Below the pieces are notes generated by a model. That model did no database searches, was not told the origin of the DNA, and worked only from the letters and a program-made list of their open reading frames with translations. The position numbers and the translations under genes were made by a program. Positions 2,528-49,588 of a DNA stretch of 64,000 nt are shown here, piece after piece. Location of the stretch: contig CAZTEU010000001.1 of the NCBI GenBank assembly GCA_964612105.1, forward strand, positions 4,047-68,046. Direction: 5' to 3'. Source of the stretch: an uncultured Gammaproteobacteria bacterium (GTDB lineage Bacteria; Patescibacteriota; Patescibacteriia; Magasanikbacterales; UBA922). Each line of letters opens with the position of its first letter. Positions within the stretch are counted from its first letter, which is position 1.

Positions 2528-2854
2528 TTAATTATTTAGTTTTGACTCACCGGAGACCAACCTAGACGCGCGTTTGCGTTTTGGTTGGTCTCCGGTTCGT
2601 CAGAGTCTCCTTTCGTTGCGTGACAACTAGCTAGTGTCAGGGGCATAGCGGAGGTACATGATGTACTTTTGATGTCGTTACCGACTCTGGTGTGATAGCT
2701 CTACCCTACGGGAGGGTAAGAGTTATGTGCGCCAGGGGGTCACGCGACCCTTCATGCTGTTCTCCAGGTGTAGCATGGTTTGTGCACGCGGATGTGCTAT
2801 AGGCAAGCTTGGCTGGGAAAGTATAGCACAAAATAGTCGCTATGTCAAGGTCTT
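2528..2854 (+). ncRNA. GC-rich highly structured noncoding element (candidate ribozyme, intron or sRNA) between the two comEC halves
   Basis: 327 nt at roughly 55% GC against about 35% in the flanks. A 14-bp perfect stem CCGGAGACCAACC...GGTTGGTCTCCGG with a 20-nt loop. A long-range CAGAGTC/GACTCTG pairing. The GTACATgATGTAC and GGGTCacgcGACCC hairpins. An 8-bp GTGCTATA/TATAGCAC stem. No ORF. Confidence 0.4.
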
Positions 2855-3739
2855 ATGAGTGATAAAATAGAAAAAATAGCTTATTTTAGCCTAATTCTAC
2901 TAATTGTGGTTTTGGTCCTAATTTGGTTTATAAGGGAAAAACAGCCTGTGGATAACTCAAATATGCTAAAAATCACTTTTTTGGATATTGGACAGGGTGA
3001 TGCTACATTTATTGAATTTCCTAGCGGTGAACAGATGTTAATTGACTGTGCGATAGACGCTGTGGTTGTGGAAGCACTTGGTCGAACTATGGATTTTTAT
3101 GATAGGACAATTGATTATCTTGTTGTAACGCATCCAGACTTAGATCACTACGGTGGGTGTGCAGATGTTCTATATCGTTTTAATATTAAACATATTATTT
3201 ATAATGGTTTTCAGAAACCAAATAGTGGAGTGTGGAATGGATTTATGGATGCAGTAGAAAAAGAAATAGACCAGGGTGCCGAATATATAATTGCAGATAA
3301 TGTTTTTGATTTGAAAGTTGATGATGTGTACATTTCCTATTTGTTTCCAGACAGGCCTGTAGATGTGGAGGATACAAATAACAATACCTCAATTGTAATG
3401 CGTATAAGTTATGGCGAGCAGGATGTGTTATTAACTGCTGATGCTGAAAAAGAGTTAGAACAATATCTTGTCGATGTCTATGATAATGAGCTGGATGTCG
3501 AAATATTAAAAGTTGGACACCATGGCTCATTAACATCTAGTATTTTAGAATTCCTGGGAGTTACATCGCCAAAGGATGCGATAATATCTTCTGGTGAAGA
3601 AAATAATTTTGGACATCCATCTGCTCGTATTATTAAGAGAATTGAACGTAAAGGTGTAAACATTTGGCGAACAGACCAACAAGGTGATATAATAGCTGAG
3701 ATTTATCCACAATTATATACAATCAACTCAAGTAAATAA
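2855..3739 (+). CDS. comEC: ComEC C-terminal part: transmembrane helix plus metallo-beta-lactamase domain
   Basis: ITFLDIGQGDA and VVTHPDLDHYGG MBL motifs, as found in the ComEC C-terminal domain. Same reading frame as 1082..2527. Confidence 0.8.
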   Translation: MSDKIEKIAYFSLILLIVVLVLIWFIREKQPVDNSNMLKITFLDIGQGDATFIEFPSGEQMLIDCAIDAVVVEALGRTMDFYDRTIDYLVVTHPDLDHYGGCADVLYRFNIKHIIYNGFQKPNSGVWNGFMDAVEKEIDQGAEYIIADNVFDLKVDDVYISYLFPDRPVDVEDTNNNTSIVMRISYGEQDVLLTADAEKELEQYLVDVYDNELDVEILKVGHHGSLTSSILEFLGVTSPKDAIISSGEENNFGHPSARIIKRIERKGVNIWRTDQQGDIIAEIYPQLYTINSSK

Positions 3740-3741
3740 TT

Positions 3742-5148
3742 ATGAAAAAAGCATTATTTTTTGGAGTAGTCTTTTCGTTTCTTATTCTCATAGGTTCTGC
3801 TTCTGCTGAATCTTTTAATTTTTGGGTAAGTAACAACATACTCCTATCTCCAGGTGAGCATTTTGCCGGTGATACAGTAAACGTATACACTGTTGTTGTT
3901 AATAACAACTTTGATAATTTGACTTCTAAAGTGGAATTCCTAAACCATGGAAAAGTTATAGGTAGTACTTCTGTGTCTAATCTAAGTTTTGAAGAAGCAA
4001 AGCAAGTAAAAATAGGATATAAACTACCCGCAGGAAAACAGGAGTTTGCAGTACGCCTTTCTAATGTGCGTGTAGTAGAAGACAGCTCATCAAGATCTTT
4101 GTCATCTGAAGAGGTGGCAACATTTGATTCACAAGCAGTTTTTGATATAGATATTGACACAGATAATGACGATATTGGTGATAAGAAAGATCCTGATGAT
4201 GATAATGATGGGCTTAGTGACTCAGAAGAATATGAAATTGGATCTGACAAAAAGAAGGTAGACACAGATGGGGACACAATAAATGACAAGATTGAGGTAG
4301 ACAGAGGTCTAGATCCTACGAAATCAGATACAGATGGGGATGGTGTAAAGGATAATAAAGACCTGTTCCCAATCGACAAAGGAGAATGGGTTGATGCAGA
4401 TGGAGATGGAATTGGTGACAACAGCGATCCAGATGATGATAATGATGGATTAAGCGATAAAGATGAAAAGAAGTTGGGCAGTGATCCACACAAGGCAGAC
4501 ACAGATGGTGACGGGTTAAGCGACTCTGAAGAGAAAAAATATGGTAGCAGTCCTACAAAATCTGACACGGATGGTGATGGTATAGATGATAAGACGGAAG
4601 TTGCCAATAAGACAAATCCAGCAAATGCTGATTCAGACAATGATGGACTTAGTGACTCACAGGAAGTTCAATACAAGACAGATCCAAATAATAAGGATTC
4701 AGATGGTGATGGACTTAATGATGGAGAGGAGATAAAAAAAGGAACCAATCCTCTCAAAGAGGATTCAGATGGTGATGGTGTTCCAGATTTGACTGATATG
4801 TTTCCTTTAGATGAGAATGAGTCTGTCGATACAGACTTGGATGGAATAGGGAATAACGCAGATGAAGATGATGACAATGATGGACTAAGTGATAAAGAAG
4901 AGGAAGAGAAGGGGACAGATCCATTACTTTCAGATACAGATGATGATGGTGTTTCTGATGCTGATGAAGTGAAAGATGGGACAGACCCGCTAGAAGGGGA
5001 CACAGATGGAGATGGAACGAAGGACTCAAAAGATGATGATCCTTTGGTTCCTTCCAAGTTTAATAAAAAGCGTGCGGTCGGAATTGGGGCGTTAATCTCA
5101 TTTATACTAGCTGTTGGATTCTACGGAGCATATAGCGTTAAGAAATAA
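3742..5148 (+). CDS. Secreted Ca-binding protein with about 14 thrombospondin type-3-like repeats and a C-terminal TM anchor
   Basis: Signal peptide. Repeated DxDxDGxxDxxE / DTDGDG motifs. Ends in the hydrophobic helix AVGIGALISFILAVGFYGAYSVKK. Confidence 0.6.
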   Translation: MKKALFFGVVFSFLILIGSASAESFNFWVSNNILLSPGEHFAGDTVNVYTVVVNNNFDNLTSKVEFLNHGKVIGSTSVSNLSFEEAKQVKIGYKLPAGKQEFAVRLSNVRVVEDSSSRSLSSEEVATFDSQAVFDIDIDTDNDDIGDKKDPDDDNDGLSDSEEYEIGSDKKKVDTDGDTINDKIEVDRGLDPTKSDTDGDGVKDNKDLFPIDKGEWVDADGDGIGDNSDPDDDNDGLSDKDEKKLGSDPHKADTDGDGLSDSEEKKYGSSPTKSDTDGDGIDDKTEVANKTNPANADSDNDGLSDSQEVQYKTDPNNKDSDGDGLNDGEEIKKGTNPLKEDSDGDGVPDLTDMFPLDENESVDTDLDGIGNNADEDDDNDGLSDKEEEEKGTDPLLSDTDDDGVSDADEVKDGTDPLEGDTDGDGTKDSKDDDPLVPSKFNKKRAVGIGALISFILAVGFYGAYSVKK

Positions 5149-5150
5149 TT

Positions 5151-5840: not shown

Positions 5841-5876
5841 AAAAATTCCAGACTTATATCTGGGTTTTTAATATAG

Positions 5877-6578: not shown

Positions 6579-6632
6579 AACTATTGATAATTTAGCTAAA
6601 TTATGTAACTATAAACATAATTATTTTACCCC

Positions 6633-7772: not shown

Positions 7773-7854
7773 TTTTATCCACAAGCTTTAAGTTCAATAT
7801 CTACTGCTATAATGGTATAATCATTGCAGTAGATATTTTTTATCCAAAATATTT

Positions 7855-19139: not shown

Positions 19140-19165
19140 GAAATGTGGAAATATTTGTTACTTAC

Positions 19166-19194
19166 AGAAAATCGCTTGACTTTTGTATTTTAAT
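19166..19194 (+). promoter_or_regulatory. Sigma70-like promoter upstream of the GC-rich orphan gene
   Basis: TTGACT, a 17-nt spacer, TATAAT, all in AT-rich sequence. Confidence 0.45.
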
Positions 19195-19326
19195 AGTATA
19201 TAATCCCGCTCGTTCAAATAGGGGGGTGAACACTCGCCCTTTTCATATGCCTTAGTCCTGTAGAAGACAGGGCAAAGGCTTCACCCAGCACTCCACAAAG
19301 TGCTTTGACTAGAGGAAAAATACAGG

Positions 19327-20283
19327 ATGACTACCACCCAGCAAAGGTTTGAGTTCGGAAATGGAATTCAAGCAGACGTGCTCGCAAACGCACTCAGAGG
19401 CTCATCAGCGATGCTACTCGCAAGAAGCGGGGACACTATCGGAGCGCATGCAATCCATCGTCCAGACGGAGCAGGTCTGCAAGACCCGCCGTCGGACATC
19501 GAAGACTCCGTGCTCTTCTCCACCGGCCTGAGGTTCGTCCCGGGAGGAATCTCCCTCATCGGCTTCACGCCAACTGGCACAAACGGATTCGAAGCATGTC
19601 TCGACGCATTCGACGGCGAGCTCATCCGTCAGTTCGGGGACACGGAGGACACCATCCTCCAGCACTTCTTCACGGCGCCCACAAGGCTGATCACACGACG
19701 ACAGATTCGCGCCTATGCCACGGTTGATGGTAGCCGGAAGCAGATCTTCAAGAACGAGCGCATCACCTGTGGTGATATCGAGCAACAAGATGATGATCTG
19801 AATGCCGCATGCATCGCAATCAGCGACGGACGCAGTCGTCACCGCCTCCTGAAGGTCAATCCCATTACGGGACGAACCATCGAGGCTGCCGGCTTCGCCA
19901 GTGCGATCAAGCACGTCAAGATCAGCCCGAACGGGTTCGTCTACGTGACGCTCACAGACGGAACACTGCGAATCTGCGGTTTCTACCGCAATCGCGTTGA
20001 TTTCAACCGAGTCGGCTCGATTCACCACGTGCGCAAGGTCGTGTTGCTCAAGGGACAGCAACTCGCCATTCTGGGCTCTGGTCGCCATCTCCTCCGAATC
20101 CTGAGCTACGGCTCTCACATCAAGAGGATCTCACTCGAAATCCCGGGATGCATGTCTGAGGAAAACACTGTGGCTCTCGGCTTCAGCGGATGTCATCCGG
20201 TCATCGTCGATCGGTCCACCGGTGTGACAGCGTTCCTCCCGCCGATCTCGGACATCGTTCCTCTCAACTGTCATTCGAACTGA
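19327..20283 (+). CDS. Orphan 318-aa protein encoded in a GC-rich (about 57%) island; no recognisable domain
   Basis: A long ORF whose composition contrasts sharply with the flanks. The antisense ORF 19414..20118 is a GC artefact. No signal peptide. Confidence 0.5.
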   Translation: MTTTQQRFEFGNGIQADVLANALRGSSAMLLARSGDTIGAHAIHRPDGAGLQDPPSDIEDSVLFSTGLRFVPGGISLIGFTPTGTNGFEACLDAFDGELIRQFGDTEDTILQHFFTAPTRLITRRQIRAYATVDGSRKQIFKNERITCGDIEQQDDDLNAACIAISDGRSRHRLLKVNPITGRTIEAAGFASAIKHVKISPNGFVYVTLTDGTLRICGFYRNRVDFNRVGSIHHVRKVVLLKGQQLAILGSGRHLLRILSYGSHIKRISLEIPGCMSEENTVALGFSGCHPVIVDRSTGVTAFLPPISDIVPLNCHSN

Positions 20284-20501
20284 CCCTCGCTGGGTGGCCT
20301 GGCACCCCCGTCCTCGGTTTTGTGGCCTTGGATGGGGGTGCTGGGCGTATCTCTTAAACATACCAATATCCGATTTTATCGGATGAGGTTGTCTAGTGAT
20401 ACACCGGCTGTACCAAAGTACAGCCAGAATTCTGGATATATAACTATGTTGTATAACCAGAATTACCCTGTACATACAGTGTACAGGGTAATTATAACCA
20501 C

Positions 20502-20530
20502 TTGACAATTTGCTCCTTTATGATTATAAT
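20502..20530 (+). promoter_or_regulatory. Consensus sigma70 promoter for rpmG
   Basis: TTGACA, a 17-nt spacer, TATAAT. Confidence 0.55.
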
Positions 20531-21550: not shown

Positions 21551-21737
21551 ATTATTTGCATTATAGCAGGGATTTTACTCCGTGCAAGTACTAAAATGCA
21601 AAAAAGTAAACGATTTGTTTACTTTTATGTGTTTTTTGATGAGTCTATTAGACTGATTTTTGTTCCTAATACAAAATAATTGTGTATCTGCGCACAAGCC
21701 ATGTTGGTTTGTGACGACAGGTCGCCCCAAGGAGGGG

Positions 21738-22292
21738 ATGATGTTTGGGAAAAAAGTGTTTGTTCTGATGGTCGCATCTGCGCTGTTCGTTGGCTGTATG
21801 GCCGAGACCGAGGAAGATCTTCCTACCACGAAGCAGATTCAGGGCTCTGTCGCATACCAAGGTGTCGCGGTGGCAGGAGCTGAGGTGGTCGCGACAACCG
21901 GAGATGAGCCGGATTCGCCAAGCTTCGCAAGTGCATCGGATGATCTGGGCCACTTCTCGCTGGAGATGCCGAAAGATCTTCCGATCTGCAAAGTGCAGGC
22001 CGCTGTCGAACTCGATGGCAAGTTGCTTATTGGTGAAGCTCTGGATCCTGGCGAGTTGGACCCAATCGAGCTGAGGGAATTCACTGAGGAAGAGGCACAA
22101 GAAGCCCAGAAATCCTTCGATCTGGAGGTGGAAGGAGTCAGTACCTTTGTTGGGTACAAAGGGTGGGGTTGTGCGTGTCACAAGCAAGGCAAGTACTTCG
22201 GGAAGCTCTGCTGTGGCTACTACGAACTGAAAAAGCCTCAGAACGCAACCTTCTGCTCCATCCCACTACCGTTTGTCTGCTACTGGAAGTAG
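21738..22292 (+). CDS. GC-rich island lipoprotein with a Cys-rich C-terminus
   Basis: AAGGAGG SD, then MMFGKKVFVLMVASALFVGC (a lipobox). The C-terminal GWGCACHKQGKYFGKLCCGYYELKKPQNATFCSIPLPFVCYWK carries 8 Cys. I take the start at 21738, not the ORF-track 21660. Confidence 0.5.
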   Translation: MMFGKKVFVLMVASALFVGCMAETEEDLPTTKQIQGSVAYQGVAVAGAEVVATTGDEPDSPSFASASDDLGHFSLEMPKDLPICKVQAAVELDGKLLIGEALDPGELDPIELREFTEEEAQEAQKSFDLEVEGVSTFVGYKGWGCACHKQGKYFGKLCCGYYELKKPQNATFCSIPLPFVCYWK

Positions 22293-22309
22293 CATTCCAC
22301 TCTTTGATA

Positions 22310-22347
22310 GGGAGGGGTAGTAAAAACTACCCCTCCTTTCTTCTTTT
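22310..22347 (+). terminator. Intrinsic terminator after the lipoprotein gene
   Basis: GGGAGGGGTAGtaaaaaCTACCCCTCC then TTTCTTCTTTT. Confidence 0.6.
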
Positions 22348-22349
22348 AC

Positions 22350-22500
22350 TAACATAGCAAGCGCAGACCTACGTCGGATGAACCTATGTCTACAAAGGGA
22401 TACCTGTTCGGTAAGAGAACACAACGACCTCAAGGGAGTCGGTCCGCTTTCGAGCGGATTGACTCCTGGTCGTCGATTCACACACTACACGTGTGTTTTT
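22350..22500 (+). ncRNA. Candidate small structured RNA (GC-rich, nested stems, UUCG tetraloop, own terminator)
   Basis: CGACC..GGGAGTC[TCCGCTttcgAGCGGA]GACTCC.GGTCG nested helices. Ends with a CACACactacacGTGTG hairpin and T7. Confidence 0.3.
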
Positions 22501-22514
22501 TTATTAAGTAGTTT

Positions 22515-27136: not shown

Positions 27137-27165
27137 TTGACAAAAACCACTATTTGTTCTACAAT
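27137..27165 (+). promoter_or_regulatory. Sigma70-like promoter for metK
   Basis: TTGACA, a 17-nt spacer, TACAAT. Confidence 0.5.
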
Positions 27166-27182: not shown

Positions 27183-27336
27183 GTTCTCAGATGGTGTTCG
27201 TTGTTGGTTGGTCCTATACAGACTAGTAGGCATTTGCCTGTCTAATCCGCATTACTGCTCAACAACGTCCGACCCTGATCATTCAGGGCGTCTATCTTCG
27301 AGAACATCCCGTATTTTGGGATGATTTTTATTCTCT
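27183..27336 (+). promoter_or_regulatory. Structured metK leader: closing stem GTTCTC/GAGAAC, then an intrinsic terminator (riboswitch-like; possibly SAM-responsive, class undetermined)
   Basis: P1-like stem at 27183-27188 / 27300-27305 encloses about 110 nt with internal CGTTGTTGG/CTCAACAACG pairing. The ATCCCgtatttTGGGAT hairpin plus a T-tract lies immediately 5' of the metK ATG. Confidence 0.35.
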
Positions 27337-28545
27337 ATGGCAGAGAAACAGTTTTTTACCTCAGAATCTGTGACTGAGGGACACCCAGACAAAATCTGTG
27401 ATCAGATCTCAGATGCTGTTTTGGATGCAGTATTAAAAGATGATCCAGATGGAGCATGTTGCTGTGAGGTTTTCACTACAACTGGACTTGTTGTTGTTGG
27501 TGGGGAAATTACAACGAAAACATATGTAGATATTCCAGCTATTGTCCGTGGAACCCTAAAAGACATTGGATATGTAAATCCAGACTACGGTATAGACTAC
27601 AAGAGCTGTGGTGTTATGGTTGCTGTTGACGAACAAAGTCCAGACATAGCACAAGGAGAAAAAGAGACAGATGGAAGTCACAAAGCACAAGGGGCAGGGG
27701 ATCAGGGTATGATGTTTGGGTATGCATGTAAAGAAACCCCAGAACTTATGCCACTTCCAATAATGTTGGCACATGGAATTACAAAAAGACTTTCACGTGT
27801 TCGTAAGAAAGGCGAGATTCCTTATTTACGTCCAGATGGAAAGAGTCAGGTTACTGTTGAGTATGAGAATGGTCAGCCAAAGCGAGTAGATGCTGTTGTT
27901 GTTGCTGCTCAACACGATCCAGGCATAACATTAGAACAATTACGAGAGGATATTAAGAGGGATGTGATACAGCCTGTATGTGGTCAGTATGTTGACGAGA
28001 ATACAAAATACTATATAAACGAGACTGGTACATTTATCATTGGTGGACCACAGGGAGATACTGGGGTTACAGGTAGAAAGGTTATAGTAGATACATATGG
28101 TGGAATGGGTCGCCATGGTGGCGGGGCGTTTTCTGGAAAAGTTCCAAACAAACAGGATCGCTCTGGTGCATATATGGCACGTTATATTGCAAAGAATATT
28201 GTTGCAGCGGATCTAGCAGATCGCTGTGAAGTACAACTTTCATATGCAATTGGTTTTCCTGAACCTATTAGTGTATTAGTTGAGACGTTTGGAACAATAA
28301 AATGTGATGAGGACAAACTAGTAGAAGCTGTGCGATCTGTATTTGACCTAACACCAGCAGGAATAATTAAGCAATTAGACCTAAAACGTCCAATGTACAA
28401 AGAAACAGCTGCATATGGGCACTTTGGACGCGAAGAGTTTTCCTGGGAGAGAAAGGACAAAGTGGAAGCGCTCAAAGAAGCAGTATCTACAAGTGGGCCT
28501 ACATGCACCTGCAATGTTCCATCCCATACTGGGTCTCACACATAA
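27337..28545 (+). CDS. metK: S-adenosylmethionine synthetase
   Basis: [26 protein letters not shown], full length. Confidence 0.95.
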
Positions 28546-28556
28546 AAAACAATTAA

Positions 28557-28584
28557 AAAATCCCGATTTCTCGGGATTTTTTAA
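28557..28584. terminator. Bidirectional terminator after metK
   Basis: AAAAAATCCCGAtttcTCGGGATTTTTT. Confidence 0.65.
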
Positions 28585-28703
28585 TTTCTTCTTCTGCAAA
28601 TACATTTGCAAGAAAAGGAACGTATGCACATGGTGTACGTACGCCCCGCCCCCTCCGTTGGAGACTCGTCGTCCATGTGCATGCTGGTCACCCCCCTTTG
28701 ATG

Positions 28704-29231
28704 TCAGCGGTTGTCCGAGATGGTGTCCATCCACTCGATGTTCTTCGCTTTCGGCTTGATTGCTGGGTTCAGGCGAACCCGTAGCGTCTTCTTGTCGACC
28801 TTAGGAACCATCTGGCTGGTACGCTTGGTCTCGGGCTCCGCACATCTCTCAACCTGGGCAGGTGTCGGCTTCCTCCTCTCCCCAGTTTTGATGTTTCTTC
28901 TGTGCTGAAGGTCGAGCTGTTCTCGTTGTCTTCTTCTCTCGATTCTCCACACTAGGATTCCCAAGAGAAATACCACTAGAACGCCACCAAGCGTCATCAG
29001 GAAGAAATGGCTCTTGGTCTGCCCAAGTCTTCGCCAAATCCCACTGGATCCACCAAAGGCCAATGCCCAGTCACTGTAACCGAGCATCAGGAAGAAACAG
29101 ACTGTGACAATCAAGTCACGGATCCACTCCATTGTTCTCTGTGTCATTGCGCCCTCCTGCGCTGACCGCTGTACGGTCGGGTTTGTGTCCTTAGGACGCG
29201 TTTTTATATCATAAGTATGCCAATTTGTCAA
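28704..29231 (-). CDS. Small 2-TM membrane protein encoded in a GC-rich island; the start is probably an internal Met
   Basis: GC-rich ORF. Two hydrophobic helices. Arg-rich C-terminus. Confidence 0.4.
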   Translation of the reverse strand: MTNWHTYDIKTRPKDTNPTVQRSAQEGAMTQRTMEWIRDLIVTVCFFLMLGYSDWALAFGGSSGIWRRLGQTKSHFFLMTLGGVLVVFLLGILVWRIERRRQREQLDLQHRRNIKTGERRKPTPAQVERCAEPETKRTSQMVPKVDKKTLRVRLNPAIKPKAKNIEWMDTISDNR

Positions 29232-29283
29232 GCTTTGTCAAGTAAAAATCGCTCAAATGAGCAAAATATGATATAATCTGTAC

Positions 29284-30084
29284 ATGACAGTAATGCAAGC
29301 CTTAATACTAGGGATTATTCAAGGTCTAACAGAGTTTCTCCCAATATCGTCATCTGGGCACCTTGTTTTTGTACCAAAACTACTTGGATGGGCAGACCAA
29401 GGGCTTAGTTTTGATGTGGTAGTGCATGTAGGCTCTTTATTAGCTGTAATAGTGTATTTTAGAAGGAGATTATGGACTCTTACAAAAGGACTATTCGGAA
29501 GTAATAAAGCTACAAAAAAAGAGAGAAAACTTGCTTGGTATATTCTCCTTACAATCATTCCAGCAGGTATTGTAGGGTTTTTATTTGGTGATTGGATAGA
29601 ACTTAATTTACGATCCACAAGATTAATTGCTTTTGGGCTTATATTTTGGGGTGTCATGCTCGGTTTTGTAGACACAGTTTCTTCTAGGATTAAGAAGAAA
29701 AAAACGCTCGATGAAACAAGTTGGCAGACATCTCTATTTATTGGTCTTGCGCAAGCAATAGCACTAATCCCGGGAACAAGTAGGTCTGGAATAACAATGA
29801 CAGCAGGTCTTGCGGGTAAGATGAGCAAAGAGTCTGCTGCGGAATTTTCTTTTCTAATGTCAGTACCAATAATAGCACTAGCTGGAGCTCTTAAGATAAC
29901 AGAACTGATAAAGGTTGGATTAGAAGGCTTCTCTATCACAACCCTTTCTGTTGGGTTTGCTGCTTCTGCAGTATCTGGTTTTTTGGCTATAAAACTTTTG
30001 TTGGGGATAGTAAGGCGTTGGAATTTTATGCCTTTTGTTTTTTATAGAATTATTATTGGTTTGTTGATATTAATTTATGTATAA
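29284..30084 (+). CDS. uppP: Undecaprenyl-diphosphate phosphatase
   Basis: LTEFLPISSSGHL and SRSGITMT motifs. Confidence 0.9.
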   Translation: MTVMQALILGIIQGLTEFLPISSSGHLVFVPKLLGWADQGLSFDVVVHVGSLLAVIVYFRRRLWTLTKGLFGSNKATKKERKLAWYILLTIIPAGIVGFLFGDWIELNLRSTRLIAFGLIFWGVMLGFVDTVSSRIKKKKTLDETSWQTSLFIGLAQAIALIPGTSRSGITMTAGLAGKMSKESAAEFSFLMSVPIIALAGALKITELIKVGLEGFSITTLSVGFAASAVSGFLAIKLLLGIVRRWNFMPFVFYRIIIGLLILIYV

Positions 30085-31129: not shown

Positions 31130-32614
31130 ATGGAAATAAAGAAACTATTCAAAACTATACAGAAAGTAAGCAAGAAAACATCTACCGATGTATATATTGT
31201 TGGTGGCTTTGTGAGGGATTTGCTTTTATTCGGAAAAAAGTATCAAGCAAAAGATATAGATTTTGTTGTTCTTGGTAGTGGATTAGAGTTTGCAAAGGAA
31301 TTTGACAGTGCAGTCAAGCAATCAGGCTCTTTAGTAGAGTTTGAGGATTTTGATACTGCTCGCTATGTCTTTGTAAAAGAGGATAAAAAAGGAAAAATTA
31401 TAGAAAAATTAGAAATAGAATTTGCAGGAGCTCGTAGTGAAGAATACAAGAAAATGTCACGTAAACCAAAAGTAGAACCAGCAACCCTAGAAAAAGATCT
31501 TTCACGTCGTGATTTTACAGTGAATGCAATGGCTCTTCCTATTTCTATATTTTCAAAAGGAGTTCCTTCAGATAAGGTAATAATGGAAAATCTAATAGAC
31601 CCATACGGCGGAACTAAAGACTTACAAAAAAAGGTAATCAAAACACCACTAAATCCAGATGAAACTTTTTCAGATGATCCACTAAGAATGCTACGAGCAG
31701 TTAGATTTGCATCTCAATTAGATTTCAAGATAGACAAAAAGACGTACAAATCAATAAAAGACTCTTCGTCCCGTCTTAGTATTATTTCTAAAGAAAGGGT
31801 GCAGGAAGAATTCTTTAAACTACTTGCAACAAAAAAACCTGTAGTTGGATTAGAGTTGTTACATGATAGTAAGCTATTCTTGGAGTTTATTCCAGAAATA
31901 AATGATCTAGAAGGAGTGGAAGAGGTAAAAGGCTACGCACATAAAGATAACCTATCACATACTTTCGCTGTGGTAGAAAATATATCACAATATACGGATA
32001 ATACTTTACTGAGGCTTGCAGGGCTTTTACATGACATTGCAAAGCCCAAAACAAAAAAACTAGAAAAAGGAAGAGGGTGGACCTTTGATATGCATGAGCA
32101 TCTTGGAAAGAAAATGGTAAGAGATATAGGAAAGAGGCTTAGAATGAAGAAAAGTGATACAGAGTATGTTGCAAATCTAGTTAGATGGCATCTGCAACCA
32201 ATATCCCTAATGGATGACGGAGTAACAGACAGTGCAGTCCGTCGCTTAGTTGTAAATTTAAAGGATGATTTAGATGATCTTCTACTACTGTGCAGGAGTG
32301 ATATAACTACAGGTAATCAGAAGAAAAAAAAGCGAAGACTAAAGAACTATGATGTATTAGAAAAAAGAATAGCTGAGGTGAATGAAAAGGATCAATTAAG
32401 GGCGTTTCAATCACCATTACGAGGCGAAGAGATAATGAAGCTTACAGGACTAAAACCAGGACCAACAGTAGGTAGAATTAAAAAAGCCATAGAAGAAGCT
32501 ATTCTAGATGGGGACATAAAGAATGAGTATAAAGCATCAAAAAAGTATTTCGAGAAGATAAAAGATAAGCTTATGAGAGATGTAGAGGGGTGGGAAATAG
32601 AAAAGAACAAATAA
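31130..32614 (+). CDS. cca: CCA-adding tRNA nucleotidyltransferase with HD domain
   Basis: IVGGFVRDLLL, HD motif HDIAKP. Confidence 0.85.
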   Translation: MEIKKLFKTIQKVSKKTSTDVYIVGGFVRDLLLFGKKYQAKDIDFVVLGSGLEFAKEFDSAVKQSGSLVEFEDFDTARYVFVKEDKKGKIIEKLEIEFAGARSEEYKKMSRKPKVEPATLEKDLSRRDFTVNAMALPISIFSKGVPSDKVIMENLIDPYGGTKDLQKKVIKTPLNPDETFSDDPLRMLRAVRFASQLDFKIDKKTYKSIKDSSSRLSIISKERVQEEFFKLLATKKPVVGLELLHDSKLFLEFIPEINDLEGVEEVKGYAHKDNLSHTFAVVENISQYTDNTLLRLAGLLHDIAKPKTKKLEKGRGWTFDMHEHLGKKMVRDIGKRLRMKKSDTEYVANLVRWHLQPISLMDDGVTDSAVRRLVVNLKDDLDDLLLLCRSDITTGNQKKKKRRLKNYDVLEKRIAEVNEKDQLRAFQSPLRGEEIMKLTGLKPGPTVGRIKKAIEEAILDGDIKNEYKASKKYFEKIKDKLMRDVEGWEIEKNK

Positions 32615-32640
32615 ATCCAGACCTACGTCTGGATTTTTGA
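32614..32640 (+). terminator. Terminator after cca
   Basis: AAATCCAGACctacgGTCTGGATTTTT. Confidence 0.6.
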
Positions 32641-32781
32641 TACAAAAAAATGGCTATTGCCATAACGTTTATTTTATTGAACCACGAGCCGGGACCATAC
32701 TACGCATTCGCAGTGATGATCCCGGCTCGGGTAACAGGCGCCAGATACCCCGCAGGTATCCTTGTGGTCGCCGGTCAGCGG

Positions 32782-32855
32782 TCGGGTGGGCTGGATTTGA
32801 ACCAGCGACCTTGAGCTTTGTAGGCTCACACTCTACCTGACTGAGCTACCCCCCG
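32782..32855 (-). tRNA. tRNA whose apparent anticodon is ACA (it would read Cys UGU); identity needs checking
   Basis: Minus-strand read CGGGGGGTAGCTCAGTCAGGTAGAGTGTGAGCCTACAAAGCTCAAGGTCGCTGGTTCAAATCCAGCCCACCCGA. Anticodon stem TGAGC/GCTCA, loop CTACAAA. T-arm GCTGGTTCAAATCCAGC. Confidence 0.7.
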
Positions 32856-32882
32856 AAAAAAGAACAAAGAACAATTAATCAA

Positions 32883-33063
32883 GCGGAACCCCCCAACCAG
32901 TGCGTCATCCGACTGTCCGCATGGAGGAGGGGTTCCGCTGTGCCAGCGGTGTTTTGCAAGCTACGGACTCCCGCAACCAGCCCTCAGGTGACTACCATGT
33001 GAGGCTACCGCTGGAACGAAGTGGTGGAGGGATTAGAACCCTTGTGCTTCGACGACTCACCAC
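32883..33063 (-). other. GC-rich structured flank of the tRNA: a 10-bp inverted repeat, and a tRNA-like minihelix with an acceptor-like stem and T-arm-like hairpin
   Basis: GCGGAACCCC...36 nt...GGGGTTCCGC at 32883-32938. GTGGTGG[AGGGattagaaCCCT]...TCACCAC at 33021-33063. On the minus strand the hairpin loop reads TTCTAAT, which is T-loop-like. Confidence 0.3.
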
Positions 33064-33179
33064 GGTACGAAGATTACGAAAATCATTTTACATTATGAAT
33101 ATAAAACTGTCAAACAGTATTTATTAACATATACACAATACATTGCTTTTGTGCGTAAAATCTAGTACAATATGCATAT

Positions 33180-33887
33180 ATGATAGAACTCTGGAATATA
33201 TACTTATACCAGCCTGTATTTAATTTGCTTATCTGGATTTATTCAAATTGGACAGATCAAAATCTAGGCTGGGCTATTGTTTATCTTACAGTGCTACTAC
33301 GTGGTGCGCTTCTACCTCTAACTGTAATTCAGCATATGAAGCAGGCAAGAAACGAGAGCTTGGGAGAAGATGTAATGAAACTCCAGAAGGAGTTGCACAA
33401 CGATGAAGTTCTAAAGAAACAGGAGATTAGGAAGCTACTTAAGAGAAAGAAAGTGAGTCCGTGGGCAAAGTTCGTGTCCTTAGGAATACAAGGTTTGGTA
33501 TTGTTACTACTTTATCAAGTATTCCTCAATGGAATAACAGGAGAGAAGCTTTTTAGTACGCTCTATTCATCTGTAGACTTTCCTGGTAAAATAAACGCAA
33601 TGTTCTACGGTTTTGATCTTGGAGTAAGGGATGTAATTTGGGCAGCTGTAGTGGGACTCTTGCTCTTTGCTGAGAATTACTATCACGCGATAAAAGCAAA
33701 GAGAATGTTTCAGAAAACAGACCTAAGTTATTTTGTGCTTTTTCCACTGGCTGTATTCGTAGCACTTTGGGCACTACCAATGGTTAAATCCTTGTTCGTA
33801 TTGACTTCAATGCTATTTTCCATTATTATTGGCTTGTTTTTATCACTACTTATTAAACCAATTAAACCAAAGAAAAAAACAGCCTAG
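33180..33887 (+). CDS. yidC: YidC/Oxa1-family membrane insertase (short form)
   Basis: Conserved N-terminal region LIWIYSNW...AIVYLTVLLRGALLPL. About 5 TM. Confidence 0.65.
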   Translation: MIELWNIYLYQPVFNLLIWIYSNWTDQNLGWAIVYLTVLLRGALLPLTVIQHMKQARNESLGEDVMKLQKELHNDEVLKKQEIRKLLKRKKVSPWAKFVSLGIQGLVLLLLYQVFLNGITGEKLFSTLYSSVDFPGKINAMFYGFDLGVRDVIWAAVVGLLLFAENYYHAIKAKRMFQKTDLSYFVLFPLAVFVALWALPMVKSLFVLTSMLFSIIIGLFLSLLIKPIKPKKKTA

Positions 33888-39235: not shown

Positions 39236-39511
39236 ATGTCCAAAGACTATTACAAAATCTTAGGTGTAGAAAAAAGTGCATCTCAAAAAGATATAAAGAG
39301 TTCGTTCTATAGTCTTAAAAAAGGAGTAGATCCTGAAAGTGACCCATACAAAGACCTATATCAGGCCTATGTGGTAATTAGTAATCCTAAACTTAGAGAG
39401 AAGTATGATTTATATGGAGAAACGTATGAAGATAGGCCGAAGAAATTTTCTGACTGGCTGTACGGAACTGGAATATCAGAGCTTGGGGATATAATAGATT
39501 TATTAGATTAG
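39236..39511 (+). CDS. J-domain-like protein lacking the HPD motif, derived from a duplication of the dnaJ 5' end
   Basis: The first roughly 50 nt are about 85% identical to the dnaJ start ([13 protein letters not shown]). The HPD position reads KKGVDPESD. Confidence 0.55.
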
Positions 39512-39513
39512 AC

Positions 39514-40605
39514 ATGTCCAAAGACTACTATAAAATTTTAGGCGTAGAAAAAAAAGCAACTCAAGAAGAAATTAAAAAGACTTTCAGAAAACTGGCTCAC
39601 AAATATCATCCAGACAAAAAAACAGGTGATGAGGCAAAGTTCAAGGAAGTAAATGAGGCTTACCAAGTTCTTGGGGACGAAAAGAAGCGCCAGCAATACG
39701 ACCAGTTTGGATCTAACTTTGACCAACAAGGTGGTTTTGGTGGTGGAATGGGCTGGGATGACTTCATGCGTGCAACAAGAGGTGGAGGAGGCTTCTCTGG
39801 TAATTTTGGTGGTGTAGATTTAGGGGATATATTTGGTGATATATTTGGATTTGGTGGACGCTCACGTGGAAACCGTAAAGCAAGAGGTCGTGATATACAA
39901 GTGGATGTTGAGATAGATTTCAAAGATGCTGTGTATGGCACAGAAAAACAAATACATCTTGCAAAACACAATGCTTGTAATGACTGTAATGGAAGTGGTG
40001 GACAGCCAGGATCTGGAACAGAAACGTGTAAAGAATGTAATGGACAGGGGCAAGTTATGCGTGTTCAGAGGACAATACTTGGTGCCATGCAGACAGCAAG
40101 TGCCTGCACAAGCTGTAGCGGAAGAGGACAAATAATTAAAGAAAAATGCAAAAAGTGCAACGGGCATGGTGCATTACGAGAAAATACAGAGATAAGTATA
40201 AAGATTCCAGCAGGGATAGATGATGGACAGTCCATTAGACTATCAGGAAAAGGGGAGTACCCTGGACAAGGCGGTGTGGCTGGAGATTTATATGTGCAAA
40301 TTCATGTAAAGGCAGACAAAAAGTTTAAACGCGATGGTTATGATATATTAAGCGAAACGACAATTTCATATCCACAAGCTGTTTTGGGTGACCAGATAAA
40401 AATACAAACAGTAGATGGTGAAAAAACACTTGTCATTCCTGCAGGAACCCAATCTCATCAGAAGTTTAGACTAAAAGATCTTGGGGTGACACACCTAAAT
40501 GGAAGTAGTCGTGGTAGTCAGTACATTACAGTTGTAGTGGATGTGCCCAAGAAAGTAAATAAAAAGACAAGAAAGTTGATTGAGGAATTAAAAAAAGAAA
40601 TATAA
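39514..40605 (+). CDS. dnaJ: Chaperone DnaJ
   Basis: J domain with HPD, a G/F region, and four CxxCxGxG zinc-finger repeats. Confidence 0.95.
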
Positions 40606-40652
40606 ACAATAATTATTGGATTATCCACAGATGATACAGAATTTTAGCAGTT

Positions 40653-40680
40653 AAATGAGTGCAACTTCACTCATTTTTTG
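40653..40680 (+). terminator. Terminator after dnaJ
   Basis: AAATGAGTGcaacttCACTCATTTTTT. Confidence 0.55.
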
Positions 40681-40689
40681 ATAATATAA

Positions 40690-41040
40690 ATACAACTTCA
40701 ACCCATAACCGGAGACCTACTCCATGCCACCAGGACTAGTAAGAGACTACTCGTTCAGACCAACAGCAATGCACAGGAAGTGCATGATGCAGGGATGTCG
40801 AGGATCTCGAGGGGGGTGTGTGCATTGCAGACACACTGGCTTCAAGCTTTCAAAGTCGGAGATTCGAGAGATCGATAATTCCGAACGGAGAAGCAGAAGG
40901 CGGCGTCGAATGCGCTAGACCCATGGTTCCAGGCAAAAACAACTAGTGGGGTTGAAGATGCAAAAGGACATTGTTTCGACCCCGACCTTTTACTTTGATT
41001 ACTCAATGTAAAAGTTAGGGGATAGGTCGAAGCAAACATA
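40690..41040. other. About 350-nt noncoding region with moderately elevated GC and several hairpins; candidate ncRNA
   Basis: No convincing ORF; the 64-aa ORF 40724..40918 is Arg-rich and low-complexity. GTGTGTGcattgcagaCACACT and TCGAGgatcTCGA stems. Ends at the AAAGAACCCGGttGGGTTCTTTTTTT terminator (41041..41066). Confidence 0.25.
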
Positions 41041-41064
41041 AAAGAACCCGGTTGGGTTCTTTTT

Positions 41065-42567
41065 TTACATGAATTTTGGTAGCTTTAGTCTGTGGAACAC
41101 CCTGTACAGTATAGTTATGGTGCGATCGAATATATTTGGAGGTTTCATAATATATGTAGCAGAAAATACTACAAATAGTAGTCCAAACACGTGAAATAAT
41201 GCAGGTGCTGTAATGTTCATAACTAGAAAACTTACCAGCCCTGCCAATAAACCAACATAAAAATCATGGTAATCAGCAACAGACCTAGTTTTCTGTATTA
41301 ATTGAAAGGCTAGTAGTAGCAATATAACTATGTATGTTCCGGCACCAAGCAGTCCAAGTTCTGTCCACATTTCTAAATACCCCCAATCAAACTGATTTGT
41401 TTCTTTAAGCTCGAGTGTAGAAGGGTCTGTATACTTTACTGTTGCACCAAGTCCATGACCAAAGAAAGGTCTTTCTTCAATCTTTCTCAAGATTGGATCT
41501 AGTAGTGTCATGCGTATGTTAGAACTTGTCTCGATTGTTGGAGAGGAAATACTCAATAACCTTACCCCAAACAATTGCCAACCTGTAGAGGTAAGATTGC
41601 TAGCGACAAGGCTTATACATGTGAAAGAGGCAATAAGTAGAACTATTAAAAATGCACACTCTTTTATCCACTCAATGATCTTATGTTTCCATAATAGAAC
41701 TATAAGCCCAGCACCAAGAGCAAGGAAATAACCACGTGAAAGATTAAGTGCAAGTACTAACATGCAAGAGAACAGCAAATATCTCCACAATGTGTGGTGC
41801 TTTTCATCACGCATTAGTAGTGATGCTATGATTAGTGAGATAGGAACCATTAATAGATGTTCCGGTAGAACTACCCTAAAAAAACCATTACCCATATCTG
41901 TAATTTTACCCATTGATATGTTTCTCAACCATGCATAGAAATCACCATGTATAGAAGCTAAATCAGCTGAGAATGTTATAAATATTATAAGTGATAATAT
42001 AGCCGACCCAATGATGAATACAGTTAGTAATCTTACAAGATATTCATGTGAGTCTTCCTCCTGAAACAGATGATATGCTGGTAGTAATAAGATTAAATAC
42101 ATGTATGGAACAATGTCTTGCGCTATGTTAATGACATTGTGTCCATTCCAAAAACCAAGTCCAATAGCTACTATTAAAAATATGAAAAACGGAAACCCTA
42201 TATAATAAGCACTATTACGTATATGTAACCTCTCCCTGAGATTTTTATTTGCAAGTGTTTGTGATGCCCAAAGCATCAAAAATATAATTGTAAGTACACT
42301 CCTTAAAGATAGTCCCAATAAATCAAGAAAATGCCCAGCTCCACCAAGTAGTATTTCACCAATAAGGACGTACCAAGCCCACTTTGGATTTTCATAATAC
42401 AAAATTCCGAAAGCCATTATTACAAGGAACATGAGTATTCCCTGTGCAATAGGATGATCTACAATAAACCAGGATAGTAATCTTAACCCAAAAAAAGCAA
42501 AAAACAGCCAAAGCGTCTGCCTATCAAAAAAAATAGATTTGGATGTAAGCCTAAATTGATAAAACAT
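41065..42567 (-). CDS. O-antigen ligase / Wzy_C-like polytopic membrane protein
   Basis: 12 or more TM helices with a periplasmic loop FFGHGLGATVKY. Confidence 0.45.
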   Translation of the reverse strand: MFYQFRLTSKSIFFDRQTLWLFFAFFGLRLLSWFIVDHPIAQGILMFLVIMAFGILYYENPKWAWYVLIGEILLGGAGHFLDLLGLSLRSVLTIIFLMLWASQTLANKNLRERLHIRNSAYYIGFPFFIFLIVAIGLGFWNGHNVINIAQDIVPYMYLILLLPAYHLFQEEDSHEYLVRLLTVFIIGSAILSLIIFITFSADLASIHGDFYAWLRNISMGKITDMGNGFFRVVLPEHLLMVPISLIIASLLMRDEKHHTLWRYLLFSCMLVLALNLSRGYFLALGAGLIVLLWKHKIIEWIKECAFLIVLLIASFTCISLVASNLTSTGWQLFGVRLLSISSPTIETSSNIRMTLLDPILRKIEERPFFGHGLGATVKYTDPSTLELKETNQFDWGYLEMWTELGLLGAGTYIVILLLLAFQLIQKTRSVADYHDFYVGLLAGLVSFLVMNITAPALFHVFGLLFVVFSATYIMKPPNIFDRTITILYRVFHRLKLPKFM

Positions 42568-43999: not shown

Positions 44000-44000
44000 T

Positions 44001-45854: not shown

Positions 45855-45855
45855 G

Positions 45856-46647: not shown

Positions 46648-46649
46648 AA

Positions 46650-48899: not shown

Positions 48900-49071
48900 A
48901 ACAAAATTTATTTGTATTAATTATACCATATTATAATAAATAACATTAACTGGATAAAATAACTATTATTTAACTTTGTCCACGACAAGCTATGTGCTAT
49001 CCTTGTAGTAGGAAACGAACAGCTCTCATTAAGGATATGGGGGTGATACACAACCAAAACAGGGGGAACCG

Positions 49072-49422
49072 ATGGGACATAAAAAACCTGAGTCAGACTT
49101 CGACCTTCATTTTGTAACAGCCTCTCCATTTCAAAAGTGGCTGGACAAGATAAACCCAGAAACTGCATTGTTGTTGGCAACCTTTTGGAACTGTATGATG
49201 GTAGTCATCTTATCTGCACCTCTCATCTGGGTAACCACTGACATGGATATGAGCTCTTCCATCGTATACGTTGCGGAGTATTGGTCTGAGTTTGCCCTCT
49301 TTATGATTGCGGCATTGGCACAACTCGCTATTCTCCTCATAGCAATGATTTCGTCTGTTCTGGCCTTCTCTGGACTTCTTTATCTGCTCGATAGGGTGTG
49401 CATGCGCTGTTCCAAATCCTGA
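49072..49422 (+). CDS. Small 3-TM membrane protein in a GC-elevated islet
   Basis: ORF in a region of about 48% GC, followed by a terminator near 49505..49540. Confidence 0.3.
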   Translation: MGHKKPESDFDLHFVTASPFQKWLDKINPETALLLATFWNCMMVVILSAPLIWVTTDMDMSSSIVYVAEYWSEFALFMIAALAQLAILLIAMISSVLAFSGLLYLLDRVCMRCSKS

Positions 49423-49588
49423 GTCCTCTCCGACCTACGGTCGTTGTACGCCGAACTGATTCGCTTCATGCGACAGCCAAGCGTCATGCGTGGGTCGGAA
49501 CAGTTCAAAAAAACACCAACAATGGTGTTTTTTTGTTTTATGCTCGTATTTACTTGATTTTTTAGCCAAATTTGTTACTATTAGTACT

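Follow-up and report, generated by a model that had tools for sequence, protein, structure and literature searches.

The question raised by the stretch of AT-rich bacterial DNA considered here, 64 kb long and referred to below as the window, is what the GC-rich islands scattered among its housekeeping genes are, and whether they belong together. An initial annotation had pointed to six such regions and to a seventh that rises less, and had suggested either repeated acquisition from a high-GC donor or a family of GC-rich structured RNA elements. The seven patches are independent, mutually unrelated accessory islets located at the boundaries of housekeeping operons. Their cargo comprises a soluble, weakly WD40-like protein, a lipoprotein and two small membrane proteins, together with an aberrant tRNA and one or two structured transcripts. 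Judging by its MetK protein, the host is a Magasanikbacteria-like bacterium of the candidate phyla radiation (CPR): MetK places it among CPR sequences labelled Candidatus Magasanikbacteria or Parcubacteria, with 88% identity to the best relative and at most 66% to proteins from other phyla. The islands are designated I1-I7, in map order except that I7 (40.7 kb) precedes I6 (49.2 kb).

The islands were delimited by scanning the GC content of the 64 kb in 300-nt sliding stretches, with a cut-off at the median plus 0.10. Against an overall GC content of 37.6%, a sliding median of 0.370 and a robust standard deviation of 0.040, exactly the six regions named at the outset pass the cut-off, plus the weaker seventh; all seven named regions are confirmed by the scan, and no eighth stretch reaches the cut-off anywhere in the 64 kb. 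Their extents and peak values are listed in Table 1. In 200 mononucleotide shuffles the top 300-nt GC content averages 0.475 and never exceeds 0.517. I1-I5 stand above every shuffle, while I6 and I7 are marginal, lying above the shuffle mean only; the lesser rise described for 40690..41040 thus corresponds to I7, whose peak of 0.50 is within the shuffle range. The pattern is specific to the clade. About 110 unrelated loci longer than 8 kb, subjected to the same scan, mostly contain no GC-rich patch or one; part of these controls consisted of 80 UDG-containing metagenome loci from many phyla, at 60-68% identity and with no close relatives among them. The window contains seven patches, the relatives denoted L167 and L169 contain five and three per 21 kb, respectively, and the clade carries 2-5 per 20 kb. 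Since the same sequence and junctions recur in independent assemblies, the islands are not assembly chimeras: a sequence at least 99.96% identical is present in JGI, ENA and Logan assemblies of many samples, on contigs as long as 372 kb. The population is clonal as far as sampled, 15/15 contigs of the species being at least 99.96% identical across the islets. An apparent strain polymorphism in the I2 slot, a 224-aa gene in L170, was rejected, as it is the same DNA with an antisense open reading frame (ORF) called instead.

All seven islands are found in gaps separating transcription units, and no operon is interrupted by them. The gaps of I2, I3 and I6 are divergent and that of I7 is convergent, while I1, I4 and I5 are inserted in antisense orientation where the neighbouring genes are co-directional. 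The view that the GC-rich regions are scattered through housekeeping operons holds insofar as they stand among housekeeping genes, but they are always found at transcription-unit boundaries and never within an operon. Similarly, two of them had been said to adjoin tRNA genes: I5 does contain a tRNA, but I2 is separated from tRNA-Trp by rpmG, at a distance of about 430 bp.

Each island appears to be a self-contained transcription unit. Near-consensus, host-type sigma-70 promoters (10-11/12), placed directly against the GC-rich block, are predicted for I1, I2, I4 and I5, terminators for I1, I3, I5, I6 and I7, and the coding islets carry their own Shine-Dalgarno sequences. In I1, I2 and I4 no more than a few bases separate the -10 box from the onset of the GC-rich sequence. 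Among the top five promoters of the 18.9-33.4 kb region are two that drive islets, the other three driving rpmG, tRNA-Val and metK. A 3-base GC periodicity is seen in I2 (p=3e-7), I3 (p=2e-5) and I4 (p=0.001), is weak in I6 (p=0.18), and is absent from I1, the flanks of I5 and the 64-aa ORF of I7. I2, I3 and I4 are bona fide protein-coding genes; I6 is a weaker coding case, with the least deviant GC content at third codon positions (GC3) of the four, 0.50. The GC3 values of these four genes (Table 1) compare with 0.22-0.37 in 58 host ORFs, and overall GC content is 0.45-0.58 in the islets vs 0.37. The relative synonymous codon usage of the islets is correlated at r=-0.33 with that of the host genes and at +0.5 to +0.7 with that of the islets of relatives; their stop codons are TGA three times, TAG twice and TAA never, and TAA terminates 45/58 of the host ORFs. 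The codon usage of the islets is foreign to the host. Additionally, GC3 of the pooled islet genes is no lower than predicted from the first and second codon positions by a regression reportedly published by Lawrence and Ochman in 1997, and gives no sign of amelioration. According to translations read by eye, the orphan secreted or membrane proteins attributed to several islands are indeed there: I3 has a lipoprotein-type signal, and I4 and I6 have hydrophobic, membrane-type segments.

Folding was scored as z against dinucleotide shuffles. Among the noncoding parts the values are -6.5 (minus strand) and -7.9 (plus strand) for I1, -4.1 for the leader and -6.8 for the trailer of I5, and -6.5 for I7. 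The untranslated regions (UTRs) of the coding islands range from -2.5 to -9.7, the 3' region of I2 giving -7.1 and -9.7, and their coding parts from +0.9 to -1.4 in I2, I3 and I6, with -3.6 in I4. The characterisation of several islands as noncoding but highly structured thus applies to I1 and the flanks of I5, and possibly to I7; the UTRs of the coding islands are structured too. If I1, I7 and the flanks of I5 were decayed pseudogenes, no residual 3-base GC periodicity is left in them, an absence that does not by itself exclude such an origin.

The islands are not related to one another. All-versus-all blastn (word size 7) and tblastx comparisons on both strands revealed no similarity between any two of them. 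No shared termini are found, and border repeats measure at best 8-13 nt, which is at chance level; only the 13-mer of I3 reaches p about 0.05, before correction for seven tests. No Pfam, PHROGs, NCBIfam or PADLOC family is matched by the islet proteins. With Rfam 15 only three tRNAs reach the threshold in the window, and targeted scans of I1 and I5 at E<=10 gave noise. Because there is no shared sequence, terminus or repeat and no match to a known family, the proposal of a family of GC-rich structured RNA elements fails, and 3/7 of the islands are coding. A GACCTACG-like hairpin motif shared by three islands was likewise rejected, being reached in 28/100 shuffles, as were hidden RNase P, tmRNA, 6S, SRP and group I/II introns, for which Rfam at the gathering score and at E<=10 yields only tRNAs. 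About 100 spurious calls were returned by ARAGORN at relaxed thresholds and were not used.

A donor was sought in protein and mobile-element collections. Among 5.8 billion clusters at 90% identity, I2 matches only itself, and against 1.84 billion representatives it has only two weak matches, both WD40 giants, at E 7e-5 or worse. For I3, I4 and I6, nothing but start-codon variants from the same population is present in the 90% clusters; the orphan status of I3, I4, I6 and I7 is less secure than that of I2. No relatives were found in viral contigs (I2, I3), phage records (I2) or plasmids (I2-I4), and the phage, plasmid or host-organism donors once envisaged receive no direct support from these searches. 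Neither integrase, transposase nor phage structural gene was detected by Pfam in the island ORFs and about 35 flanking ORFs, nor in precomputed tables covering 9.3-30.3 kb. Repeated acquisition from a high-GC donor is partly supported, by the foreign codon usage and by the differing contents of the slots described below, but no donor, integrase, repeat or shared terminus accompanies it. Dissimilarity among the islands combined with best hits in the host's own lineage had been named as the outcome that would speak against it; the islands are dissimilar, but best hits are found in no lineage. Horizontal gene transfer and genomic islands in Patescibacteria have been reported in general terms (PMC12455944); no description of small GC-rich single-gene islets was found in the literature searched.

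The gaps that hold the islets are shared with other members of the clade. The metK neighbourhood of the window was compared with those of L007, L167 (a 1.23-Mb genome), L168 (identical to L180), L169, L179, L181, L182 and L183. They have in common the backbone DUF6938-EamA-GH-permease-metK-[slot]-bacA-gpsA-CCA-[slot]-yidC-band7-hrcA-grpE-hsp20-dnaK, the order of which is kept in L007, L167, L168, L169 and L179, and in L181-L183 as far as their contigs reach. Flanking proteins are 50-93% identical to those of the relatives, about 70% on average in the closest, L167. There are no intermediate relatives, as MetK identity falls from 100% straight to 88%. The slots tested lie upstream of rpmG, upstream of DUF6938, between metK and bacA, and between the CCA-adding enzyme gene and yidC; all compared relatives have GC-rich patches in the same gaps, with non-homologous ORFs. 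L167 matches four slots of the window: upstream of rpmG it has a GC-rich block, upstream of DUF6938 a GC-rich lipoprotein gene behind an 11/12 promoter, between metK and bacA two GC-rich membrane-protein genes, and between the CCA-adding enzyme gene and yidC a GC-rich tRNA operon with a secreted-protein gene. By pairwise BLAST its cargo is not detectably homologous to that of the window. At the 3' boundary of I2, homology to L167 starts only from rpmG onward, and promoter orthology between the two was not seen in the I3 and I5 slots. The noncoding island segments have no blastn or nhmmer match in the loci compared, among them those of L007 and L167-L169, which cover three of the slots; as neither conservation nor covariation is present in the relatives, no RNA family can be claimed. 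The slots of L169 contain an OPT transporter gene with GC3 0.84 and hydrolase genes with GC3 0.77, in a genome of 46% GC; since these are ordinary genes with extreme GC3, high-GC imports do land in the slots. A conserved slot and different, non-homologous cargo, two of the features of a replacement-type flexible island, are thus both present; replacement among closely related strains, a third, was not seen in the 15 contigs of the species.

The slot between metK and bacA, occupied by I4 in the window, was followed in ten genomes, and in all of them it harbours a gene on the minus strand with a higher GC content than the host (GC3 0.48-0.72 vs 0.25-0.44). The gene of the window, L007, L167 and L179 encodes a small protein in which two hydrophobic segments are accompanied by an Arg-rich stretch; that of L168, L181, L182 and L183 encodes a receiver domain standing alone, and these four domains are 23-41% identical to one another. 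Pairwise BLASTP homology between same-slot proteins is not significant. Homology of the four small membrane proteins was considered and rejected, a four-way alignment giving 17-24% identity, indistinguishable from shared architecture. The promoter of the slot reads TTGACAAATTGGCATACTTATGATATAA in the window and, near-identically, TTGACAAATTGGCTTAACCATGCTATAT in L168; it is TTGACAAAGGTGTATAGTTATGGTATAA in L167 and TTGACAAAACTGTATAGTTATGTTACAA in L179, with the common spacer TGTATAGTTATG, and about 32/40 bases are identical between the window and L167. It is conserved beyond functional need, spacer included. Downstream of this promoter stands a membrane-protein gene in the window and the gene of a receiver-like protein in L168, and because near-identical promoters precede different folds, at least some of the cargo has been replaced behind a resident promoter. 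Short colinear matches link the 3' UTR of I4 with those of L007 and L167 (p about 0.007 each), although they are weak.

How the islets came to be where they are is the part of the question on which several explanations compete. Replacement-type flexible islets, situated behind fixed promoters and fed by an unsampled GC-richer gene pool, are judged to have an even chance of being the right one. The contents of a slot would be swapped by recombination through conserved flanks, with the slot promoter and bacA on one side and the metK terminator on the other, in an organism that encodes the ComEC DNA-uptake channel. The cargo would ultimately come from an unsampled pool at roughly 50-58% GC and, behind strong resident promoters, would be expressed at once. 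The products, being mostly exported or membrane proteins, would probably act at the cell surface, plausibly in interaction with a host or partner. The imports in L169 and the swapped folds fit this idea. A number of observations speak against it. No donor or homologue was found for any islet of the window, in remote searches with I2 and in the 90% clusters of I3, I4 and I6; the window contains no mobility gene, and neither an att site nor a target duplication was seen at the island borders. Because the sampled population is clonal, there is no presence/absence polymorphism, and transfer itself was never observed. The promoters of I3, I6 and I7 are weak or were not found in the scan, and expression and function of the islets are deduced from their sequence. 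Moreover, the same kinds of gene recur on the same strand of the metK|bacA slot, GC-rich, at saturated synonymous divergence, which either favours GC content maintained on the spot or requires continual re-import. Cargo long resident in genomes with GC3 of about 0.27 should ameliorate, and the pooled islets bear no such signature. Two ways out are possible: frequent import or re-import from the GC-richer pool, or a local force that keeps the units GC-rich.

Such a force is assumed by the explanation that comes next in probability, possible although rather unlikely, in which the islets are resident, vertically inherited, fast-evolving and lineage-specific units whose GC content is maintained by gene conversion or by selection on RNA structure. 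It accounts for the same general kind of minus-strand GC-rich gene between metK and bacA in ten genomes, for the orthologous promoter of the window and L167 and for the 3'-UTR matches with L007 and L167, as well as for the lack of an amelioration signature in the pooled islet genes and of a donor among 1.8-5.8 billion proteins. In four units the GC-rich block extends from near the predicted transcription start to the terminator, the UTRs being as GC-rich as the ORFs, and this coincidence with the transcript fits the idea too. It is harder to reconcile with a membrane protein and a receiver-like protein behind the same conserved promoter, or with the ordinary enzymes and transporters of the L169 slots (GC3 0.77-0.84), which look like plain imports. 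A hydrophobic helix followed by arginines is a common architecture (positive-inside rule), and the pairwise BLASTP comparisons of such proteins are not significant; other genes with equally strong promoters, rpmG and metK, are not GC-rich. A jump in GC3 from 0.27 to 0.67 would also be far above any effect of gene conversion known to have been reported in bacteria, Lassalle et al. reportedly having described such effects in 2015. A more specific proposal, somewhat more doubtful again, is that strongly promoted, fast-evolving units of this clade, encoding exported proteins, receiver domains, odd tRNAs or ncRNAs, sit at fixed inter-operon "expression sites" with a compositional equilibrium of their own (GC3 0.5-0.7 vs about 0.27). 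Its cause would be GC-biased gene conversion, acting at recombination hot spots driven by transformation, or else selection in favour of GC-rich, structured, stable transcripts. Direct insertion from a phage, a plasmid or the host of an episymbiont, as integrative islands or prophage remnants, is improbable. It would explain the foreign composition, the moron-like organisation, the tRNA within I5 and the tRNA-Trp near I2, and odd accessory tRNAs in the slot upstream of yidC in relatives (UCA, a second CCA, CAU) recall phage tRNA sets; but no PHROG or PADLOC match was obtained, the viral (I2, I3), phage (I2) and plasmid (I2-I4) searches were empty, the 64 kb contain no integrase, transposase, phage structural gene or flanking repeats, and the islets are single units of 0.3-1.3 kb, not multi-gene elements. 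Phages and plasmids are also reported to be usually more AT-rich, and not more GC-rich, than their hosts (10.64898/2026.07.20.739530). Still less credit can be given to a single family, be it a structured RNA, miniature inverted-repeat transposable element (MITE)-like repeats or cassettes of the integron type that share a recombination site. Folding of the noncoding parts is strong (z -3 to -10), and a conserved promoter followed by a swappable ORFan and a structured 3' end superficially resembles integron Pc/attI with a cassette and attC, but the islands show no mutual similarity, the GACCTACG motif is at chance, no Rfam match and no conservation in relatives were found, neither arrays nor an integrase were found, and three islands are protein-coding. 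Finally, chimeric assembly or binning contamination, for which nothing beyond the composition jump itself could be cited, is next to impossible given identical junctions in independent JGI, ENA and Logan assemblies of many samples, the same pattern in relatives from other environments, and promoters and terminators sensibly placed at the junctions.

Table 1. GC-rich stretches of the window (300-nt sliding GC content at or above the median plus 0.10) and predicted features of the seven islands, in map order.
Feature	Position	Strand	Description
I1 GC-rich stretch	about 2451-2900		peak GC 0.53
I1 transcript	2505..2813	-	about 310 nt, GC about 0.50; no ORF >43 aa; no codon periodicity; strongly folded
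I1 intrinsic terminator	2508..2525	-	hairpin and T-run, overlapping the last codons of the comEC ORF
I1 promoter	2820..2848	-	TTGACA-17-TATACT, extended -10 TG, 11/12; only such site in 2300-3000
I2 GC-rich stretch	about 19157-20527		peak GC 0.61
I2 promoter	19176..19204	+	TTGACT-17-TATAAT, 11/12; GC-rich sequence from the very next base
I2 ORF	19327..20283	+	318 aa, soluble, predicted beta-rich; GC 0.57, GC3 0.67; TGA stop; ORFan
I2 3' region	20284..20500	+	GC-rich hairpin, then perfect AT-richer hairpins, up to the rpmG promoter (20502-20530)
I3 GC-rich stretch	about 21602-22512		peak GC 0.57
I3 ORF	21738..22292	+	184 aa; Shine-Dalgarno AGGAGGGG; GC3 0.61
I3 terminator	22309..22338	+	13-bp GC-rich hairpin, then T-rich sequence
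Structured GC-rich tail	22340..22505	not assigned	between the I3 terminator and a second terminator (22480-22496); z -6.4 (+), -4.6 (-)
I4 GC-rich stretch	about 28397-29283		peak GC 0.58
I4 3' UTR	28587..28703	-	GC-rich hairpin and TTTTCTT (about 28600-28640, read from the sequence); abuts the bidirectional metK terminator (28551-28586)
I4 ORF	28704..29147	-	147 aa; hydrophobic (membrane-type) segments, Arg-rich stretch, charged tail; GC3 0.64; TGA stop
I4 promoter	29214..29241	-	TTGACA-16-CATACT with TG, 10/12; divergent from bacA; kept in relatives, including spacer bases
I5 GC-rich stretch	about 32542-33182		peak GC 0.58
I5 trailer	32613..32781	-	GC 0.50; strongly folded (z -6.8); terminator 32613-32636 shared with the end of the CCA-adding enzyme gene
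I5 tRNA	32782..32855	-	anticodon ACA; 64.6 bits
I5 leader	32856..33078	-	223 nt, GC 0.55; noncoding, structured (z -4.1)
I5 promoter	33085..33113	-	TTGACA-17-TAAAAT, 11/12
I7 GC-rich stretch	about 40633-41073		peak GC 0.50
I7	40690..41063	+	weak island, about 370 nt, from the dnaJ terminator to the end of the Wzy-like gene; bidirectional terminator 41040-41063
I6 GC-rich stretch	about 49136-49558		peak GC 0.50
I6 ORF	49072..49422	+	116 aa; long hydrophobic (membrane-type) segments; GC 0.45, GC3 0.50; TGA stop
I6 3' UTR and terminator	49423..49535	+	structured (z -6.3); 13-bp terminator 49506-49535

I1, a candidate noncoding RNA (ncRNA) or decayed remnant, fills the gap between two comEC ORFs, and its promoter, only 7 nt away from where the Lactamase_B ORF starts, points away from that ORF. 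These two ORFs, one with the DUF4131 and Competence domains (1082-2527) and the other with Lactamase_B (2855-3739), share a reading frame, with exactly 327 nt (109 codons) between them, and the latter has no predicted plus-strand promoter; I1 may have split an ancestral single comEC gene. Just downstream of the comEC halves, at 3742-5148, a 468-aa secreted protein with eight TSP3_bac (thrombospondin type-3) calcium-binding repeats is encoded. The product of I2 is weakly WD40-propeller-like; AlphaFold (AF2) without an alignment gave it a confidence score (pLDDT) of 35, too low to define a fold. No terminator was flagged by the scan for I2 or I4. In the AT-richer segment between I2 and the rpmG promoter (20361-20500) there are perfect hairpins, e.g., CCAGAATTACCCTGTACA…TGTACAGGGTAATT, which at z -9.7 give the strongest fold signal of the window. 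I3, for which the scan gave no clear promoter, encodes a protein with a lipoprotein-type signal (…ALFVGC, Cys20), an acidic middle and a Cys-rich C-terminus. The 3' UTRs of the metK|bacA slot (28600-28690 in the window, 11270-11330 in L007, 11225-11265 in L167) are rich in alternating purine-pyrimidine palindromes, among them ACGTACGTAC, CATGTGCATGC and GTGTATGCA…ACGTGTACGCAT; in that of I4, ATGCACATGG is the exact reverse complement of CCATGTGCAT, located 45 nt downstream in the terminator hairpin. I7 holds a doubtful 64-aa Cys/Arg-rich ORF (40724-40918), lacking periodicity and absent from the protein collection, and could be either an ncRNA or a small zinc-knuckle-like protein.

The genes that flank the islands are those of central cellular functions. 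They comprise a fragment of a class I aminoacyl-tRNA synthetase gene, comEC, and the genes for a GT4-family (MraY-like) glycosyltransferase, a Mur ligase, SHMT and TsaE; rpmG, UDG, metK, bacA, gpsA, the CCA-adding enzyme gene, yidC and hrcA-grpE-dnaK-dnaJ; and fmt, priA, metG and the genes for a D-Ala-D-Ala carboxypeptidase and a TP_methylase-family (RsmI-like) methyltransferase. Judging by their translations, the genes that close the window on the 3' side may encode ATP synthase subunits. Directly upstream of full-length dnaJ (39514-40605) there is a 91-aa ORF consisting of a J-domain only (39236-39511); because both open with the same 13 residues, a partial tandem duplication of dnaJ is suggested. 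The bacA gene seems to be leaderless, with a TATAAT box about 6 nt upstream of its ATG (29269-29286) and no Shine-Dalgarno sequence.

I5 is a tRNA operon, and its tRNA is unusual. Embedded in a 480-nt GC-rich transcript, it has the anticodon ACA, the discriminator A73, a C1-G72 pair and one mismatch in the acceptor stem. The ACA anticodon is rare in bacteria because of A34, and the identity of E. coli tRNA-Cys depends on the GCA anticodon and the U73 discriminator; given its anticodon, A73 and the acceptor-stem mismatch, the I5 tRNA does not qualify as a canonical tRNA-Cys. Editing of A34 to inosine, should it occur, would allow this tRNA to read UGU, UGC and UGA. TGA serves as a stop codon in the window (4 host and 3 islet ORFs), and no in-frame TGA was found. 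Within the I5 leader, at 33018-33060 on the minus strand, a tRNA-like minihelix GTGGTGAG…AGGGTTCTAATCCCTCCACCAC can be read from the sequence, with an acceptor-like stem and a T-arm but no D or anticodon arm. In the corresponding CCA|yidC slot of L179 (15479-15661, minus strand) a UCA (opal-reading) tRNA lies beside a second CCA tRNA with C33, and that of L167 (16848-17245, minus strand) contains tRNA-Met(CAU) and two tRNA-like genes with long insertions. Three anticodons in this slot, in the window and relatives taken together, are of the form NCA, belonging to the UGN codon box.

Yet another RNA, located outside the islands, is the leader of metK. Between the metK promoter (27137-27165) and start codon (27337), positions 27183-27303 of the plus strand form a conserved, structured, three-helix RNA, present also in L167 (9867-9975), L179 (8992-9100), L169 (9976-10082), L007 (9873-9978) and L168 (9548-9666). 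Its helices are an outer one (AGATGG…CTATCT), that of the long hairpin GTTCGTTGTTGG…CTCAACAACG and that of another hairpin, which is variable; terminator hairpins and a T-run come next. From five sequences, RNAalifold predicts 36 pairs, of which 14 show compensatory changes. A covariance model finds the motif upstream of metK in the six clade members that have the leader (E 4e-16 to 2e-27), including L168, which was outside the model training, and in 0/79 metK loci from other phyla; no Rfam match is obtained at E<=10. The motif is a candidate for a new S-adenosylmethionine (SAM)-responsive riboswitch or attenuator, apparently undescribed.

The genomes of CPR bacteria, or Patescibacteria, are tiny and streamlined, and a life on other cells is assumed for these organisms; how their surface and interaction functions vary is poorly understood. 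The window suggests a simple architecture for such variation, in which many single-gene slots, of which at least one has a strong promoter that is conserved, are located between conserved operons and are filled in each relative with different orphan exported or membrane proteins and RNAs. That the cargo is GC-rich across an AT-rich clade of family rank may point to an unsampled donor pool, and would then be a clue to the partner organism, or else to an unusual local mutational or selective regime. If GC content is indeed maintained locally, this would be a case of locus-specific evolution of base composition in bacteria far larger than any known to have been described. In practical terms, a scan for GC jumps is a cheap way of detecting, in genomes of this type, candidate ncRNAs as well as genes for accessory functions and interaction, and the metK leader offers a testable riboswitch candidate.

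Several known systems resemble the islets in part. The closest comparisons are with replacement-type flexible islands and with phage "morons". Replacement-type flexible islands have reportedly been described by Rodriguez-Valera and colleagues, an example being the O-antigen or surface-protein loci whose content changes from strain to strain while their position is fixed. Common to these islands and the islets are a fixed slot between core genes, non-homologous and compositionally deviant cargo, mostly concerned with the surface, the absence of dedicated mobility genes, and exchange presumed to proceed through conserved flanks. Unlike those islands, however, the islets are tiny (0.3-1.3 kb, with one gene or RNA each) and numerous (seven in 64 kb), are GC-rich and not AT-rich relative to the host, vary between genera or families and not between strains, the sampled population being clonal, and in at least one slot retain a conserved resident promoter. 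Phage "morons", said to have been described by Juhala et al. and Hendrix et al. in 2000, are likewise single genes of deviant composition inserted between functional units, with their own sigma-70 promoter and intrinsic terminator and often with exported or membrane products; the islets, in contrast, lie among housekeeping operons, with no phage genes nearby and no PHROG match. With classical tRNA-linked islands they share deviant composition, accessory cargo and, in two cases, a tRNA gene nearby or inside, but not an integrase, direct repeats or a multi-gene structure, and the tRNA of I5 is cargo inside the unit and not an integration target.

Integron cassettes offer another parallel, in that a conserved promoter is followed by a swappable, promoterless-looking ORFan of foreign composition with a structured 3' end. 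The islets, however, are dispersed singly at many loci and not in an array, no integrase was found in the 64 kb, and several islets have a promoter of their own and the strand opposite to that of their neighbours; by eye, with no dedicated attC model applied, no obvious RYYYAAC/GTTRRRY core sites are seen. The GC-rich intergenic regions that reportedly signal structured ncRNAs in AT-rich genomes, an approach of the Breaker laboratory associated with Meyer et al. in 2009 and Stav et al. in 2019, have counterparts in I1, the flanks of I5 and I7, all of which are GC-rich, ORF-poor and strongly folded, with their own promoter or terminator, but conservation and covariation in relatives are lacking, and most of the GC-rich sequence of the window is coding. 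Finally, GC-biased gene conversion, said to have been reported for bacteria by Lassalle et al. in 2015, has a hot spot example in mouse Fxy in the pseudoautosomal region. As in such hot spots, very fast evolution goes together in the islets with raised GC content at third codon positions and in flanking noncoding sequence, although the magnitude is far above anything known to have been reported in bacteria.

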